Shown: positions 1 to 9,769, numbered from the whole stretch's first letter. The stretch: 63,582 nucleotides of DNA, filler included, from Collodictyon triciliatum (GCA_043381765.1; 5 parts of 5 records of this genome joined end to end with filler, not necessarily neighbours in it), one strand, 5' to 3'. Notes: generated by a model from the sequence alone, not told the origin. Program-made: numbers and translations.

Positions 1-95
<95 letters not shown>

Positions 96-96
96 G
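1..96. repeat. (TTA)n microsatellite, probably intronic in the MAPK15 gene
   Basis: Perfect TTA run from position 1. Confidence 0.95.
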
Positions 97-220
97 TGGG
101 TATTATTTGGTTTTTTGAAACCTGTTGATAGAGTGAAGGAATGTTGAATGAGCAGATGAACGGATCGATATTACGCCTGAATATCATCATCTCTAGATTA
201 AATCCTTACATTTGATGCAG

Positions 221-849
221 ATATACAGAAGGTGTCGATATGTGGTCTGTTGGATGCATCATCGGTGAGCTTATCGCAGGGAAGCCCATCTTTCCAGGTA
301 TATTTGCTGCAGTGTCCTTTAAAAACAGCAACGTGTTTGTTTCTTTTTACACTTTACTTTCCCATGGTTTTATGTATTATTTTTCTTTTGTTTTTTTTTA
401 TCGTTTCATCTGACTAAATATCCTAGGCACATCTACGACAAACCAATTGGAAAGAATCATCGAAGTGACTGGATATCCTACACATGTAATCAGTTATATC
501 CATATTTCACATTCTACTTATCAATAATTACATTTATTCTATAAAATTCTAGATGAGGCATATGTTATCCATACAATAAGCATCATATTACGGGAGAAAG
601 AATCCATTTTTCCTCCTTCTTACATTAACAATAAAAAAAATCAAGAGAGAAAAAATGATTCTAAATTAATAGCAATTATACTTTACTTATTAGGAAGATA
701 TTAAAGCAATAGACTCGAAGTATACCGAGAAGATATTAGCCGAAGTTATTGTCGGCAAAGTCAAGTACAGAGTCTTTCAGCTGATAAATTATCGAAATGA
801 ATCTTTATATTTTCATATCAGATTTGCTCGAGTACGAATAACACTATTT

Positions 850-913
<64 letters not shown>

Positions 914-2055
914 TTTTGAGGCGAGGAACAAAGACCCAAATCCTTTCTGAAAACAGAAATTACATCGATAGGTCATTGTCATCAATCTTCCCACAAGCAT
1001 CTCCAGAAGCATGTGACCTTATGAGACAGCTTTTGCACTTTAACCCAAATAAGAGACCATCTGCCGAGGTGGTTATTTCATCGATAGCTTTTGTTTATTT
1101 TAATTAGTCTTTGATGGCTGGATGGAATAGATCACAAGTGTTGTTTTTCGTTTCTTTTTTCTTTTTCTTTTTCTTTTTCTTTTTTTTCTTTTTCTTTTTC
1201 TTTTTCTTTTTTTTCTTTTTCTTTTTTTTTCTTTTTCTTTTTCTTTTTCTTTTTCTTTTTCTTTTTCTTTTTCTTTTTCTTTTACTCATACACGATTCTC
1301 CGCTATTTATTTGTTCTTTTATTTCAAAATTGTGCATTTGTTTGTTGATGCCAACAATAGTAGTACTAATCATATACCAGCAAGCTATGAAACATCCGTA
1401 TGTCCTCCAATTCCATAATCCTGCCGATGAACCATCATTTCCTCGGACAATCCAGATTCCAATCGACGATAATCACAAGTGAGCAAACTTTAGATATTAT
1501 ATACATATATATCTCTTTTATATCTACTCAGCATCCTTCTTTTCTTTTATTTTTATTTTTATTTCTTTTTCTTTTTCTTTCTTTTTCTTTCTTTTTCTTT
1601 CTTTTTCTTTCTTTTTCTTTCTTTTTCTTTTCCTTTTTCTTTTTCTTTTCTTTTTCTTTTTCTTTTTCTTTTTCTTTTTCTTTTTCTTTTTCTTTTTCTT
1701 TTTCTTTTTCTTTTTCTTTTTCTTTCTTATTCTTTTTGACACTTTGACACTTTGACATATTTTTTAATTAAAAATTTTACTGTACGCCCAGATTTCACAC
1801 GTCTGAATACCGAGAACATCTGTACAAGGAAATCATTCGGAAAAAGAAGGAAATACGCCGAAGGTCACTGGCACAGCTTGCCGCGCAATCGTCAGGAAGT
1901 GCCTCTGCAAGTGTGAGTGACTCCTGAAAACACAAAAACTTTGCACGACTAAATTCACTTTATTGAAGTTGGCATATGATGTGTTTGTCCTGAACTCACA
2001 AAGCACATCTCCTGGATGATGCACAGACATACCGAGGAGGAAAAACAATAATAAC

Positions 2056-2098
<43 letters not shown>

Positions 2099-2157
2099 CA
2101 TGGTGCGATTATTCACTCATTTCCATTGAACATAACGTATAGGCAAGTACGAAGTAA
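221..2157 (+). CDS. MAPK15: Atypical MAP kinase ERK7/ERK8 (MAPK15), 3' part; 5' exons lie upstream of the window
   Basis: GT-AG exons 221-297, 427-485, 694-764, 972-1068, 1381-1478, 1792-1912 and 2143-2157 splice to [43 protein letters not shown]...[36 protein letters not shown]...[31 protein letters not shown]. The FHNPxDEP...IPIDDN...YRxxLY tail is typical of ERK7. The stop could instead be the TGA at 1924-1926. Confidence 0.9.
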
Positions 2158-2440
2158 AGTGACCAATGTACTGTAAAGGAGAGAGGACTCGTCCCAGCTT
2201 CTGTCTTTCTTCTAAACAGAACTGTCCATCATCGATTGCATCGGTATAAACCCACAGACACACTGCAGACGCCAAAGCTCTTCAGACCTAGCTTCTGGTG
2301 GCTCGTTCACGTGCTGTTGTCTCCGACGTGGCGTGCTAGCATCGCCATGAGACTCTCTTGACTATTATCCTAGTAATACGGAGCGAAACGGAGAAGGGAG
2401 AGAAGCAAAGAGAGCATTCGGGCGAATAATGCTGCTTGAT

Positions 2441-3530
2441 TTATGAGCGGAACAACTGCATGAAAGAGGATGCAACCGGGAAGGTGTGGCTTTCTGGAAG
2501 ACGGGCGTTTCCGGGCCGGTCCATACAAACGCAGTTCCAGCCGTCTTTGCGCGCCGCCTCTGCCTCGAGGATGTTGTCTGTTGCAAACAGGATATCGCCC
2601 GCTGGAAGGCCCAATGCCCTACTCACAACACAAAGAGCAAGGAGAGAAACTGTCAGAAAAATCACGCATTCTAGCAACATGCGAGTGCCTCCTGCCCCGT
2701 CTGCTATCGATTCACGCGCGCAGAGACGCGCTGGTCGGGACTCAAAAAGACTGGTGATTGGAAGGGGAAAGATGTGTATGTATGTATGTATGTATGTATG
2801 TATGTATGTATGTATGTATGTATGTATGTATGTATGTATGTATGTATGTATGTATGTATGTATGTATGTATGTATGTATGTATGTATGTACATGGATGAA
2901 CTGGTGAATCTACATATATGTGTGAGAGCGTTTGTTGGCTGTCAAACCCGCGTATATCTGCGTAGCTGGACTGGTGTATCTTGAGGCCGATGGTCGTGTC
3001 AAAGTGGCCGGCCAGCTGTGGCGTCAGGTCGCCCGCCTCGCTGAATGCAAACAGCAGCTTCTGGGCCGCCACAGAGCCGCTAGAGTATATGTGAATGGGG
3101 ACGCCAAGTCGCGTCCACCTGGCAAAGGCAAGCGGTGTGTCTGGATAGAGATGGCCGCGTATCTGGCCGCTCGCGTAGCCGTCCTTCCAGATGGCGCCCT
3201 GCAGAGCCTTCAGGCCAGTGGCCTTGACGTCGTGGTCCATCAGCAGATGCACCGCGTGGCCGAGTCGCTCCAGGAGATTCGGTGCGTCGGGAAGCGCTGT
3301 AGCAGGGTTTGCCGCGTGGAAGGAGGCGGCTTCCTGAATGACAGACTCGGCAAGCGTGTGGAAGGCCGCATCGTTGCTGTGCGCAGCCGCATAAGCTGCG
3401 AGATGTCTGCGAGCGTAGGGGAAGAGCACGTCCTTGACGAAGGAGATGGACGTGGTTGTGCCTTCGATGTCGAGGACAACGGCGCGGTAAGGGAAACGGA
3501 GGGTGAAGCGCGGTGCTGCATGATGATGAC

Positions 3531-3604
<74 letters not shown>

Positions 3605-4602
3605 GGTTATCCGCTATGCGTAATTCGCTGTGGTTGTTCTATGCAATAGTTATGACACTTGATGAAATGGCCGGTCAAATGGATGTGGACGGATTAAACC
3701 TTCGATATTGGCGAGTGGTAGAGTTTGGATCATGTAGGCCACCGGTTNNNNNNNNNNNNNNNNNNNNNNNNNNNNNNNNNNNNNNNNNNNNNNNNNNNNN
3801 NNNNNNNNNNNNNNNNNNNNNNNNNNNNNNNNNNNNNNNNNNNNNNNNNNNNNNNNNNNNNNNNNNNNNNNNNNNNNNNNNNNNNNNNNNNNNNNNNNNN
3901 NNNNNNNNNNNNNNNNNNNNNNNNNNNNNNNNNNNNNNNNNNNNNNNNNNNNNNNNNNNNNNNNNNNNNNNNNNNNNNNNNNNNNNNNNNNNNNNNNNNN
4001 NNNNNNNNNNNNNNNNNNNNNNNNNNNNNNNNNNNNNNNNNNNNNNNNNNNNNNNNNNNNNNNNNNNNNNNNNNNNNNNNNNNNNNNNNNNNNNNNNNNN
4101 NNNNNNNNNNNNNNNNNNNNNNNNNNNNNNNNNNNNNNNNNNNNNNNNNNNNNNNNNNNNNNNNNNNNNNNNNNNNNNNNNNNNNNNNNNNNNNNNNNNN
4201 NNNNNAGTGACTGTACTTTGTGTGTAGGTGAAGGAGCTCGTGACTGTTGTGGCTTCCTTGCCAGCACCAAGATTCTTCAGCTGCTGGAACTCCACCAGGG
4301 CCGCCTCTATTGTACGGAAGTTTTGCCATGAGCATACCAAGTTGCTTGTGGCAAAATAAAAGCCTTTTGGAAGCGAGCTTATTGAGGTTATTGAGCTTCA
4401 GGTAGAAAAAGTCGAGCCCATCAAATGCAGAATACCTTGAGTTGGTTGTGGGAGCGAAACCGCAAGCGCAACGCAGGCAGAGCCTGAAATGAAGCAATAT
4501 TAGAGACTGGGTCGGGGTTATAACAAGATATCGAGCAGATGAATGGCCAAGGAAGATCTTCTTACAAAGGTTGTCAAAAAGAGTCTTTGCTTGCGTCGCC
4601 AT
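2441..4602 (-). CDS. ENOPH1: Enolase-phosphatase E1 (HAD family, methionine salvage MtnC) with an N-terminal extension, probably spanning the N gap
   Basis: Exon 3515-2948 has VVLDIEGTTTSISFVKDVLFPYA, KATGLKALQGAIWKDGY, IYSSGSVAAQKLLF and HFDTTIGLK. Exon 2618-2441 has ILFATDNILEAEAARKDG...DRPGN. A phase-1 intron 3699-3516 links the upstream exon PVAYMIQTLPLANIE. The core (2441-3515) is secure; the start at 4602 is inferred across the gap. Confidence 0.85.
2773..2891. repeat. (TATG)n microsatellite in an ENOPH1 intron
   Basis: Perfect tetranucleotide run. Confidence 0.95.
3519..3604. repeat. (GAT)n microsatellite at the 3' end of an ENOPH1 intron
   Basis: Trinucleotide run just before the minus-strand acceptor CAG (3518-3516). 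Confidence 0.9.
3748..4206. other. Scaffold gap (N run without the spacer motif)
   Basis: 459 N with no TTAATTAATTAA, unlike the contig spacers. Confidence 0.95.
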
Positions 4603-5334: not shown

Positions 5335-8300
5335 ATGTCGCTGTCCAAGTTCCAAAATGCCTTCCAGCCCGAGGGCGACCCTCACAACGCAACTGTCTTC
5401 GGCCTTACGTTTGAGGAAGAGCCCGTCTCTGAAATCCCGGAGGAAATCGGCAACTACACTAATCTCCGCGAGATGTACTTGTCTGGACACATCGTATGCC
5501 TTAACTCCCTCACTTTCCTACGATTTTATATTATATTATATTTCTATTTCTATTTCTATTTCTATTTCTATTTCTATTTCTATTTCTATTTCTATTTCTA
5601 TTTCTATTTCTATTTCTATTTCTATTTCTATTTCTATTTCTATTCATTTCTATTCATTTCTATTCCCTTCATTTACCCATGGTTGTTATTATATATCTTA
5701 TCTTGTGGTGTGTTTGATCACAAAAACTTTACCTTCGCTCAGTTCCAAAGGCTGCCTGCCTCGTTTACTGCCCTTACTGGAGTGACAAAGCTCGACATCA
5801 GCTCCAACAGCGTTAGTCTTTGATCTGAGTGCTTGTCTTTCACACTAACTTGGTTAACATGCAGTCCAGCTTCGATTCATATATTTACTATTAACAATCT
5901 TGGTGTGCGCTTTATAGGTCATTGGAGAACTGCCTCGACAGATTTCGGCCCTTCTCAGCCTCAAGTTTCTTGCCATACACGGATGTCCCGTAAATTTTTT
6001 TTTAATAATAGATAATCATCGACAATTACGTCAGAATCTATGACTATGGCACTACCCCCCTAGTGGTCTTCTTTTTCTTATATTTTTTGTAATTCTTTTT
6101 CTTGCCTGTCTATCCGCCCTACAGAAAATCCAGGACCTACCTGTGTGGTTCACACATCTGAAAAATCTTGAAGAACTTCAACTTGTTGTGAGATTTACTC
6201 AACTTCTGATAGCTAAACGAAGCCTTCGCAAACAAAGAAACGATCTTCCACTGCAATATTTGCTTGCAATCATAACACTAACTCAAATGAAAATTTTAAC
6301 ATTATAGGGGGTATGGTTGTCCTTTTTTTCTTCAACTTTATCTTCTTTTTTTTTTTTATACTTCTTATTCGATTGGAAGCAATACCATCCACATCTTATT
6401 ATCAATTTATTATACTTAGGATGTGAGTTGACCTAATTAGCAAGATCTTTTCTTCGTCTTTTTGTATTTTGACATAGCCCTAAATATAATTAATGATATT
6501 GATCATGTTGATTAGGGAGTAAGTTTGATGCTTTTGCAAATCTAATAATGTCAACAATAATTCAAGAAATAATTGAAATGTGTATGAATTCTTTCTAATT
6601 TCTTTATAGCATGTGAGTTTCTTGTTTGTAAAATATTACTTATTTTGGTTCATCCATTCGCTTTAATATTAATTAAATTTTCCTCTAAATTAGAACGTAA
6701 GATTTTACATTTCACATAATTTTACAATTGTGATACGCCTGAATTATCTAGTCAATTTGATTTGTTTTGCTAACCTTTTTCTTTCTTCTTTTGTTTTGGT
6801 CACAACACACGTCCACTTGTCCCACAGGATGTATGTACCCATTCTTATAAATCAACAATCACATCATTTTTTTTATTAAAAATGCATTTTTTTACTTGCT
6901 AAAATAATGTAGGTTGTAAGTAACTGGATTGGTGTATTAAAAAAAAACCCCCCTCATGAAATTTTATAACACCGATTACACCGCTTATGGGTTATAAATG
7001 GGCTCGCTCTAACCAAATTCTTTATATTGGGGACATACTAACAATTATTTTATATATATTCTCTGCCCATCCCAATCCTCACCAAAATGAAAATCTAGAC
7101 CGTGAGTTTTCCCCTTGTGTATACAAATAATCCAACACACATGTAGACCTACCAATATTTCTTTACATCTGAGTTTACAGGCACTAAAACTGAAAATATA
7201 ATACATACCCCCTGGTGTGAACGATCTGTTGTGATTTCCAGATTCGCAGTGTTCCTGAAGGCATCCAACAGCTTCCGTGTTGGGCCAAGATTCAGAACAT
7301 TCCATTCGAAATTTACCGGCCGTCCACCCCTGCCCCGGTTTTCCCTAATGCATCCTCTTCAGCAGCTGCAGCCTCAGCCTCAGCCTCAGCCTCCTCCGTA
7401 AGTTCAGTTTACTTTCTATTTGCTCCCATTCCGATTCCCATGCCGATTGCTAATCAGTTCGCTAAATTGTTTCCATTTCCTTTGGATTGAATTTTATGCA
7501 CTGCCAAGTCTTCTGGGAAACCAGTATGTGTTGAAATAGCATTTACTTTGATGCTTTTTTTTCCCACAACATCATGGCATTTTACCCCTATCGGTTCGAA
7601 TTTGTTATACGCTTATTCCAGAAGAAATGTGCCAAAGCTTATTAGTTGCTTGTTCTTTTTGTTAGAATCTCGGTGCTTTGACGAACTTAAGAGAGTTGAA
7701 AATCTACGGCAACCCAGTAAATAATTTAATCACGGTTCTATCATCCTCAAAACCATGTCCGTATTTCGATTGTTTTCCTTATCGATTCTTTCCCCATCCA
7801 TCTATTTCTAGCTCTCGGAGCTTCCCGAATCCATCACGAATCTGTCGAAGCTCACATGCCTAGCTATCGTACGCCAATTTTTTCTTTCTATAAACATTTG
7901 CCTATGTAATTTGTGCAGCATTGTCGTATGCTCTGCAGCGTTACATATTTATGGATATTTACTGTACCTTAAACTGAATAGTCGAAGCCCAGGCCTGCTA
8001 GCGTTAGTCACTTTTATTTCTATTTCAAAATTAAACCCTTTGTCGTTTAGTCTCTGCACTTTATATAAAACTGTAAAGAAAAAAATAAAAATACAATAAT
8101 TTCGAAGAGTTCCACAACACTGAACTCTAATGTTTTGTTCCAAGTAAATCATTTATGACATTGTTTTCAACAACTACATTCTCACGGTATTTCTCTTTCC
8201 CTTGCAAACCTTACAACTGCAGCAAGCCCGTAGCGGCACCCAAAATGTTAGTTTTTATTTATAAATCCATAAGTAAATAATACAGTAACCAAATGATACT

Positions 8301-9769
8301 AATTGATTTTTTTTTCCTTACCAAGGATGTAACGCATTCCCTCTTTCGGACTGCTTTTAATTTATGGAATAAGTGACCATGAGACATACTACTTTGAACA
8401 TTTATGCGCCAACCTTTTCTAAAATAGAACATTAACGTATGCTACGATAGATTGTAAGAATTTGCCTTAGCCATACTCCAAATCAGAATATTCGATCGAG
8501 TTGTTTACTTTATGTCGCAAATCTGTTCTAATCAATTTTTATTATGCTATTTAATCTTGAATTTTTGGAATTAGGATGTAAGTTCTAACATTTTTCGAAA
8601 TACGTTACCAGGCCTTTTTATTTTTAAAAAAAATAAAAAAAAATATGGCACTTGAACCCAGATATACTTGCACTTTAATTTGAAACTAACTTTTGTTTTT
8701 CTATTTGGGGAACATGAACATGTGCACAGAACGTAAGCGTAAATTATATTCAATTCATCTAAATGAACATTACATTCTAATATAATGTGGACTCATATTA
8801 TTCTCGTTGATTTTTATGTGATCATTCTTAGAGCCTCAATTTTTTTAAAATAATAAAACCACTTCGCAGGACGTGGGTTCTTCAACAACACAAACCAGTT
8901 CAAACAAAACATCCATTTTCAACCTAATTATGTCATACATTTTTTGAATTCCTAATAAAGATTTTTCTTTTTCTTTTTCTTTTTCTTTTTCTTTTTCTTT
9001 TTCTTTTTCTTTTTCTTTTTCTTTTTCTTTTTCTTTTTCTTTTTCTTTTTCTTTTTCTTTTTCTTTTTCTTTCTCCATTATTTCGGCACGGCACTGGAAC
9101 GCTTAATCAAACCACAGAAAGTACGACCTTACTTTTTTCTTTGAAAAATTCACCATCGCTATTTTTCTTTAAAATCAGTGATGATGCTTTGATTACTAAA
9201 CTAACCTCACCTGTTTTACACTTTTCTACCGACTTAGCGCGTAAGCTTTTCCTCTCTTCTTTTTCTCTATCATATTAGCTGTGCATCTTTTTCATGTCGC
9301 TTCAATTCTAAACTATGCCCAACCCTTGCGAATTATCACCCACCTACGTACCGTCCTGGCGTTGTTCAACCCGCCCATTTTCCCAAAATCAATGCTGCAG
9401 CCGGTAAGACCAACAGTACTCCTCATGATATATACTCCTATACTACTCTGTCGCAATACATCACTAAATCAAATCGTTTGATTTAAAAAAAAAACCTCAT
9501 CATCCTATCCCTGCAAACTCATTGCGCCAACGGACATTCTCCACCACCACGCTATCGTGAAGAACGTAAGCAATAGTTTCCTTACTCTCCCATCCACCCA
9601 TCACAACTGCATCTGCCCAAGCAAAACACCAGACCCTGCCTCACGCGCGCTCACTCTCTCCCTCTCTTCCGCGTAGCTCTACTTCGCCCCAAAGGGCATC
9701 AGCAACCTGCCGTGCTTCAACCAGGACGCCAACCAGTTTGGAAACCTCAAGGACCTCGAGTTCTACTAA
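5335..9769 (+). CDS. Leucine-rich-repeat protein (about 288 aa if all exons are used; 29 predicted exons, 17 of them 3 nt)
   Basis: Exons 5335-5493 (..EIPEEIGNYTNLREMYLSGHI), 5743-5811 (FQRLPASFTALTGVTKLDISSNS), 5918-5989 (VIGELPRQISALLSLKFLAIHGCP), 6125-6187 (KIQDLPVWFTHLKNLEELQLV), 8 micro-exons, 7242-7397 (IRSVPEGIQQLPCW...), 7509-7523, 7666-7716 (NLGALTNLRELKIYGNP), 7812-7868 (LSELPESITNLSKLTCLAI), 7982-8002, 8108-8143, 8223-8246, 9 micro-exons, 9677-9769 (LYFAPKGISNLPCF...EFY*). LxxLxLxxNxLxxLP consensus. No signal peptide or TM segment is evident. The 15-36 nt linker exons are the least certain. Confidence 0.85.
6308..7101 (+). other. Micro-exon array 1: eight 3-nt exons (G-D-G-H-N-D-V-T)
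   Basis: tag|GGG|gtatgg 6308-6310; tag|GAT|gtgagt 6420-6422; tag|GGA|gtaagt 6516-6518; tag|CAT|gtgagt 6610-6612; tag|AAC|gtaaga 6694-6696; cag|GAT|gtatgt 6828-6830; tag|GTT|gtaagt 6913-6915; tag|ACC|gtgagt 7099-7101. Confidence 0.85.
8326..9565 (+). other. Micro-exon array 2: nine 3-nt exons (D-I-D-N-D-K-R-P-N)
   Basis: aag|GAT|gtaacg 8326-8328; tag|ATT|gtaaga 8451-8453; tag|GAT|gtaagt 8575-8577; cag|AAC|gtaagc 8730-8732; cag|GAC|gtgggt 8870-8872; cag|AAA|gtacga 9118-9120; tag|CGC|gtaagc 9238-9240; cag|CCG|gtaaga 9401-9403; aag|AAC|gtaagc 9563-9565. Confidence 0.8.

Follow-up and report, generated by a model that had tools for sequence, protein, structure and literature searches.

The micro-exon genes (MEGs) of Schistosoma contain 10-20 tandem exons of 6-81 bp (3-81 bp in the abstract), mostly of 15 bp, separated by introns of 0.1-5 kb; the accessible part of that report describes their coding sequence as mostly micro-exonic, their secreted products as varied by alternative splicing, and the genes as schistosome-specific (10.1101/2023.06.21.545858). 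Going by the accessible portions of the respective articles, single exons of 3 nt or less are present in human MAP4K5 (PMC8632122) and in Drosophila homothorax (hth) (PMC7392893), fungal lipS has two 3-nt exons (PMC5639578), and plants have 1-nt exons as well as an adjacent pair of 5 and 12 nt (PMC8831610). Recursive splicing uses zero-nucleotide AG/GT sites, according to the available text on the subject (PMC13149111). Here we describe a leucine-rich repeat (LRR) gene from Collodictyon triciliatum (GCA_043381765.1) that harbors seventeen 3-nt exons arranged in two tandem arrays of eight and nine. The gene lies at positions 5335-9769 (+ strand) of a 63,582-nt stretch of DNA, hereafter the window, which consists of five parts joined with filler that are not necessarily neighbours in the genome.

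Like the MEGs, as far as their accessible description goes, the LRR gene has many very short exons in tandem, each a multiple of three in length, which are hard to annotate and could be skipped in frame. Unlike in the MEGs, these runs consist purely of 3-nt exons, the introns measure 79-245 nt, and the micro-exons code for 17 of 271 residues, or 32 when two further short exons are counted, so that most of the coding sequence is not micro-exonic. Variation by skipping was not seen either, since the contigs from three RNA runs are all-inclusive only, which is a weak negative. With the isolated ultra-short exons, as described in the accessible texts, the gene shares canonical GT-AG introns on both sides and an exon length too short for exon definition, and several of those exons are also constitutive. 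They occur singly, or at most two per gene, whereas 8 and 9 stand head to tail here, and at all 17 sites an exon of no more than 3 nt, flanked by GT-AG introns, is present in mature RNA. As at the recursive sites described in the available text, a donor comes almost directly after an acceptor, and removal is probably stepwise, with a donor regenerated at the end of the growing exon. Recursive sites leave nothing in the mRNA and lie in very long introns, whereas three coding bases are retained at 17/17 sites of the LRR gene and its array introns are short. A literature search, whose coverage took in little of subscription journals and supplementary tables, retrieved no published tandem array of 3-nt exons. 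As far as could be found, runs of eight and nine single-codon exons are a new and extreme variant of micro-exon architecture.

In LRR genes with one repeat per exon, introns of the same phase occur at the same repeat position, which permits units or blocks to be duplicated together with their introns. The gene described here is built in the same manner, with repeat units bounded by same-phase introns at the same place; we know of no report of a repeat loop that is split codon by codon. The gene model comprises 27 exons, an 816-nt coding sequence and 271 residues, and all 26 introns are phase 0. As read from the translation, the protein consists of two blocks, each closing with a cap-like PxGIxxLPC[WF]...[FL]E[IF]Y segment; an initial annotation of the window had recognized the PxGIxxLPC[WF] part, and the common motif extends to [FL]E[IF]Y. 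Block 1 contains four repeats and closes in IRSVPEGIQQLPCW...FEIY, followed by a Pro/Ser/Ala linker, and block 2 contains two repeats and closes in LYFAPKGISNLPCF...LEFY and the stop codon. The translation holds six units of 23-24 residues with the LRR core LxxLxLxx(N/C)xL then xxLPxx(I/L). In a curated-profile scan of six single exons, exon 4 matched LRR_8 weakly, at 14.5 bits (E=0.031) where the cut-off is 27, and the remaining five were without an LRR profile match, exon 13 giving only a weak match to DUF4283. No hydrophobic stretch was apparent by eye at the N-terminus.

In the four ordinary repeats, the loop that follows the LxL strand is 4-5 residues long, and a phase-0 intron (marked here by a slash) falls at, or within one codon of, one common spot: SGHI/FQRLP, SSNS/VIGELP, HGCP/KIQDLP and YGNP/LSELP. 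The last intron of each array falls at this standard spot as well (T/IRSVP and N/LYFAP). Array 1 follows ...LQLV and consists of eight 3-nt exons, whereas ...LAI is followed by a 21-nt exon, a 24-nt exon and the nine 3-nt exons of array 2. Each of the 17 triplets is directly preceded by AG and directly followed by GT, and none is a stop codon. The initial annotation had placed all 17 units correctly and differed in three details. The V of its loop VGDGHNDVT, read there as a micro-exon, comes from the final codon of exon 4 (63 nt); it counted three short exons before array 2 and the RNA contigs display two (7982-8002 and 8223-8246); and its two equal nine-residue loops measure 9 and 24 residues, equality being reached only if 15 residues are ignored. 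Altogether, 19 of the 27 exons are 24 nt or shorter and code for only 32 residues, and all 19 are symmetric and phase 0, so that any subset of them is skippable in frame.

The introns that touch a micro-exon (79-245 nt, median 121) are similar in length to the other introns of the gene (95-268 nt, median 135). Their donors match GTAAGT at 4.9 of 6 positions on average, against 4.8 of 6 for the others, and their pyrimidine tracts are slightly weaker (0.56 vs 0.68, P=0.08). In a position-weight scan for micro-exons, the acceptors of the gene were weak. Long microsatellites were also observed within introns, namely a 6-nt unit repeated over about 100 nt in intron 1 (5494-5742) and a CTTTTT-type run of about 100 nt in intron 22 (8873-9117).

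Contigs from four sequencing runs (X1, X2, X3 and X5) were compared with positions 5650-8970, a range that ends before the last four micro-exons of array 2. Spliced transcripts are present in three runs. X1 and X2 belong to one study, for which the library type is not on record, and X5 to a second study, a metatranscriptome labelled freshwater. A joint from 6188 to 7242 with an identical set of 23 intervening letters was observed in X1 (depth 104), X2 (111) and X5 (11). Together with the G at 6188, these 23 letters are all eight triplets of array 1 in genomic order. In the same three runs, the sequence behind 8247 runs through the nine array 2 triplets and on into CTCT, where the last exon begins. 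Contigs that carry the array 1 triplets also show the joints on both sides of the 21-nt exon. Because the RNA contigs carry the letters of the AG-NNN-GT units in order between the flanking exons, the units are used exons. The 17 units are thus real, included 3-nt exons of one 27-exon gene. No joint that skips a triplet was found among the spliced contigs of X1, X2 and X5 at a 10% threshold, contigs being prone to drop rare variants. The all-triplet form is the sole one in these contigs.

The units could in principle be chance motifs or an assembly artefact rather than exons. In prokaryotic and viral control loci, selected with the three-anchor array pattern described below, a loose version of the unit pattern does form non-repetitive chains free of stop codons that reach 7 and 8 units, and chain length by itself is therefore weak evidence. 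The chance reading is nevertheless refuted, as the RNA contigs of three runs carry the exact 24 and 27 letters, in genomic order and flanked by the neighbouring exons, and the distribution of the sites also speaks against it. The + strand of the 63.6-kb window contains 34 matches to the strict pattern AG-NNN-GTxxG, and the - strand 15; 17 of the 34 lie within 6308-9563, where 0.85 would be expected (Poisson P about 8e-17). When the spacer L in YAG-N{L}-GTRAG was varied from 0 to 30, enrichment was limited to L=3 and to the LRR gene (11 in the gene, 1 elsewhere on the + strand and 1 on the - strand), all other lengths giving 0-2 occurrences in the gene and 0-6 elsewhere in the window. We therefore leave next to no probability to chance or artefact. 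No micro-exon array was detected in the rest of the 63.6-kb window, and arrays are present in only two of the six loops of the gene.

The contigs also reveal differences between near-identical strains. The triplet at 8451-8453 is ATT (Ile) in the window and in X5 and GTT (Val) in X1 and X2, a replacement change. An X2 contig contains 51 letters between the pieces that end at 7355 and start at 7666, against 42 in the window (7356-7397), which probably reflects three additional codons in the linker's Ser/Ala repeat in the X2 strain. Two contigs (X1 record 2 and X2 record 7) are unspliced through five and four array 1 micro-exons, respectively. These unspliced contigs (6371-7033) have about one tenth of the depth of the spliced contig, and their introns differ from the window by about 1.5%; such contigs may represent precursors or else library DNA. 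Run X3, a DNA library, gave one clean genomic piece (7168-7431), its other pieces being matches of 18-31 letters.

The two arrays occupy equivalent places in the repeats. They start 0-1 residue past the LxL/LxI strand of the final repeat before each cap, and both close with an intron exactly four residues ahead of the conserved Pro. Among 7 repeat units, the post-loop segments IRSVPEGIQQLPC and LYFAPKGISNLPC match each other best in both directions, with 6 of 13 residues identical and a BLOSUM sum of 36 (next best for either, 17). For the cap segments, the alignment score is 34, compared with 9.3+-4.5 for shuffled sequences (0 of 2000 reach 34), and the two halves of the protein align locally with a score of 77 against 29.7+-5.5 (0 of 1000 reach 77). 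Taken together, the reciprocal best match, the cap alignment and the alignment of the halves support, at the level of sequence, the view that the array-bearing modules are specific paralogues, that the array positions are homologous by register, and that introns were carried along in the duplication. The homologous position proposed in the initial annotation holds up to that extent. The arrays also share a composition, as Asp and Asn make up 8 of their 17 residues against 22 of 254 in the rest of the protein (P=1e-4); taken singly, they make up 3 of 8 in array 1 (P=0.03) and 5 of 9 in array 2 (P=7.5e-4).

We favor, with modest confidence, the view that an array or a smaller forerunner of it was already in the module when this was copied. 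Both cap modules would derive from an internal duplication at the DNA level that carried the introns along, the array or forerunner would most likely have been present beforehand, and the codons and introns would since have diverged past recognition. The earlier claim that the architecture was duplicated with the module is thus upheld in part, as position, number and Asp/Asn richness are common to the two arrays, and it finds no backing in codon order or in the introns.

Several observations weigh against a shared origin of the arrays. The best codon register matches 11 of 21 nt, which is no better than permuted codon orders (P=0.45), with P=0.10 against random codons of the gene, and no residue-by-residue or codon-by-codon correspondence was found between the arrays. 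Intron sequences are not similar, either inside one array or from one array to the other (mean local score 17.6 vs 17.2+-3.6 when shuffled), and the only strong pair, I1/I22, is a microsatellite. The loops are unequal (9 vs 24 residues), with the 21-nt and 24-nt exons in block 2 only. Richness in Asp and Asn could arise from loop chemistry or from a splice-context bias, the first base being a purine in 14 of the 17 micro-exons. A common position is also expected if both arrays grew independently at a conserved phase-0 intron. Finally, no orthologue was found beyond the near-identical strains, and a candidate array of different sequence in a metagenome contig, described below, hints at a process that is not tied to the LRR module or to one gene type.

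The search for relatives gave the following. Exon 1, compared with longer proteins, yielded three candidates, none of which scored. Peptide patterns from exon 13 gave 596 matches in metagenome contigs, and tblastn confirmed none. The sole exon 13 match among 1.84 billion representatives, P0121, was rejected as a tandem-repeat junk protein.

Independent growth after the duplication is a possible reading that we regard as doubtful. Each loop would have gained single-codon exons from the standard phase-0 intron, for instance because codon-plus-intron units were copied locally or because new introns formed beside old ones, and both copies would have grown arrays because the loop before the cap tolerates insertions. 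The dissimilar codon order and introns, the unequal loops with small exons confined to block 2, and the location of the arrays at the gene's standard intron position are all in line with such growth. Against it, arrays of nearly equal size (8 and 9) occur in exactly the two reciprocal-best modules and nowhere else among the six loops or in the 63.6-kb window, no trace of a recent unit duplication was detected, and two origins are invoked where one suffices.

We also performed a scan of public contigs with a three-anchor array pattern that matches array 1 once in the window and in 0 of 100 shuffles. It retrieved at least 103 stretches in metagenome contigs, 89 of the loci among the matches listed being satellite-like, and at least 119 prokaryotic and 21 viral stretches in the controls. 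Among the metagenome matches listed, one locus, L065, alone stands out. Short chains at L015, L023, L085, L093 and similar loci were rejected, since chance chains in the controls reach 7-8 units. L065 is a 3672-nt metagenome contig with a GC content of 0.38 and about 48 candidate AG-NNN-GT units on one strand, without stop codons. By the count under which the non-repetitive, stop-free control chains reach only 7 and 8 units, it contains 38. The units are spaced by a median of 70 nt (range 50-111), and the segments between them are mutually unrelated. The pattern AGNNNGTR occurs 57 times (48 and 9 on the two strands), a count that none of 200 shuffles reaches (11.7+-3.3). The triplets are mostly CCG, ACG, TCG, ACT, AAA and GCG. 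A possible 9-nt exon and a GC donor were noted near 2990-3070 (positions 1-3672, + strand of the locus). For the origin of the LRR arrays, L065 can be read in two directions. Its candidate array codes for a Pro/Thr/Ser/Lys-rich stretch and, if real, would indicate that arrays form in other gene types, as independent growth would have it. Conversely, no RNA backs the L065 units, and the contig does not match the window in sequence.

Inheritance of the arrays together, followed by their upkeep by selection, is plausible on grounds of parsimony and unproven. The initial annotation had taken retention of the architecture to imply selection on it, which does not follow. Where introns are rarely lost they persist without any need for selection, and those of the arrays resemble the others of the gene; rare intron loss together with a change-tolerant loop would suffice for retention. 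We consider it rather unlikely that the architecture is itself under selection, be it as single-codon cassettes whose regulated or stochastic skipping would vary loop length and charge beside the cap, or as closely spaced introns that would serve expression control (timing, intron-dependent enhancement or surveillance). The symmetry of the 19 small exons would allow such skipping, a canonical loop of 4-5 residues could be obtained from a subset of the triplets, and the intron-containing array 1 contigs of X1 and X2 may represent slowly spliced precursors. Nonetheless, every intron of the gene is phase 0 and the symmetry is therefore not special to the arrays, whose introns are distinctive neither in length nor in splice-site strength; every spliced contig of X1, X2 and X5 contains all the triplets; and the intron-containing contigs could be library DNA.

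As to the splicing of such exons, splice sites would be paired across each short intron (intron definition), and exon length would hence be irrelevant. Each 3-nt exon has a donor that overlaps with the preceding acceptor, so that the two flanking introns could not be engaged at once and adjacent introns are probably excised in succession. The upstream intron would be removed first; the triplet would then form the end of a long exon, and its donor would be an ordinary one. One contig agrees with this order. In X1 record 5 (8452-8604, depth 3.5), the end of the 24-nt exon, the GAT and the next triplet of array 2 are already joined, the intron after the second array 2 micro-exon is retained, and the contig extends beyond it into the following intron. 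That this order is read from a single contig of low depth counts against it. As to function, metal binding or partner contact by the lengthened acidic loops beside the caps would be guesses. The positions of all exons and the basis for each are given in the table.

Exons of the C. triciliatum LRR gene, in window positions. X1, X2 and X5 are the RNA runs with spliced transcripts.
Feature	Position	Strand	Content	Basis
Exon 1	5335-5493	+	159 nt; start codon ATG, N-terminal region, first repeat up to ...LSGHI, then a phase-0 intron	Gene model; loose end before 5743 in X1 and X2 is the last 30 nt of the exon, with one C-to-T difference
Exon 2	5743-5811	+	69 nt; LRR unit FQRLP...DISSNS	Joint 5811 to 5918, GT..AG, X1 and X2
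Exon 3	5918-5989	+	72 nt; LRR unit VIGELP...AIHGCP	Joints 5811 to 5918 and 5989 to 6125
Exon 4	6125-6187	+	63 nt; KIQDLP...LKNLEELQLV, upstream flank of array 1, donor GTGAGA	Joint 5989 to 6125; piece 6125-6188 in X1, X2, X5
Array 1 no. 1	6308-6310	+	GGG (Gly)	AG/GT site and letters in X1, X2, X5 mRNA contigs
Array 1 no. 2	6420-6422	+	GAT (Asp)	AG/GT site and letters in RNA contigs
Array 1 no. 3	6516-6518	+	GGA (Gly)	AG/GT site and letters in RNA contigs
Array 1 no. 4	6610-6612	+	CAT (His)	AG/GT site and letters in RNA contigs
Array 1 no. 5	6694-6696	+	AAC (Asn)	AG/GT site and letters in RNA contigs
Array 1 no. 6	6828-6830	+	GAT (Asp)	AG/GT site and letters in RNA contigs
Array 1 no. 7	6913-6915	+	GTT (Val)	AG/GT site and letters in RNA contigs
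Array 1 no. 8	7099-7101	+	ACC (Thr)	AG/GT site and letters in RNA contigs
Exon 13	7242-7397	+	156 nt; IRSVPEGIQQLPCW...FEIY cap-like segment of module 1, then Pro/Ser/Ala linker	Pieces 7242-7355 in X1, X2, X5; 3' end in masked Ser/Ala repeat, placed by GT and frame
Exon 14	7666-7716	+	51 nt; NLGALTNLRELKIYGNP	Joint 7716 to 7812; pieces 7666-7716 in X2, X5
Exon 15	7812-7868	+	57 nt; LSELPESITNLSKLTCLAI, upstream flank of module 2 loop, donor GTACGC	Joints 7716 to 7812 and 7868 to 7982
Short exon	7982-8002	+	21 nt, 7 codons	Joints 7868 to 7982 and 8002 to 8223 in X1, X2, X5
Short exon	8223-8246	+	24 nt, 8 codons	Joint 8002 to 8223; piece reaches 8247, next mRNA letter also G
Array 2 no. 1	8326-8328	+	GAT (Asp)	Loose end behind 8247 (X1, X2, X5) and before 8452 (X1)
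Array 2 no. 2	8451-8453	+	ATT (Ile); GTT (Val) in X1, X2	AG/GT site and RNA contigs
Array 2 no. 3	8575-8577	+	GAT (Asp)	AG/GT site and RNA contig letters
Array 2 no. 4	8730-8732	+	AAC (Asn)	AG/GT site and RNA contig letters
Array 2 no. 5	8870-8872	+	GAC (Asp)	AG/GT site and RNA contig letters
Array 2 no. 6	9118-9120	+	AAA (Lys)	AG/GT site; inclusion from loose-end letters alone
Array 2 no. 7	9238-9240	+	CGC (Arg)	AG/GT site; inclusion from loose-end letters alone
Array 2 no. 8	9401-9403	+	CCG (Pro)	AG/GT site; inclusion from loose-end letters alone
Array 2 no. 9	9563-9565	+	AAC (Asn)	AG/GT site; inclusion from loose-end letters alone
Last exon	9677-9769	+	93 nt including stop TAA; LYFAPKGISNLPCF...LEFY cap-like segment of module 2	Gene model; loose-end RNA letters finish in CTCT, the first letters of the exon

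Other features were observed in the window. Repeats of the His and GTAT types flank an exon (2704-3606, - strand; Pfam E=5e-7) that resembles enolase-phosphatase E1 of the HAD hydrolases; even the closest database entries share only 53-56% identity with it, and the lineage seems poorly sampled. A bacterial-looking segment between runs of N (57654-62000) contains an IS66 transposase fragment, a DDE_Tnp_4 transposase open reading frame, a Gly/Asp-repeat open reading frame and, on the - strand, an intron-free open reading frame of 736 residues with eight FG-GAP repeats and an RTX-like tail. Scaffolding or contamination has probably produced a chimera here, the window being otherwise eukaryotic and rich in introns. 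Further microsatellites occur in introns and spacers throughout the window, several of them adjoining runs of N.

Seventeen fully included 3-nt exons in one gene stretch current models of splicing, since exon definition cannot work on such exons, and the overlap of donor and acceptor provides a natural substrate on which the sequence and rate of intron removal can be tested directly. Single-codon exons would escape gene finders and most RNA aligners, and predicted proteins would lose their loops or break. With an array in each of two paralogous modules, it becomes possible to ask whether introns spaced by single codons are inherited, regained or selected. The L065 candidate suggests that the phenomenon may reach beyond one gene. 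In a broader reading that we put forward only tentatively and as a whole, some microbial eukaryotes would use single-codon exon arrays as a recurrent and heritable means of building loops and segments of low complexity. A mutational process would add one codon-plus-intron unit at a time, and a purely intron-defined spliceosome would set no lower limit to exon size. The architecture would be inherited via duplications, as in the two LRR modules, and would also turn up in unrelated gene types, such as the Pro/Thr/Ser array of about 48 units in L065; combinatorial variants of a loop may be another outcome.

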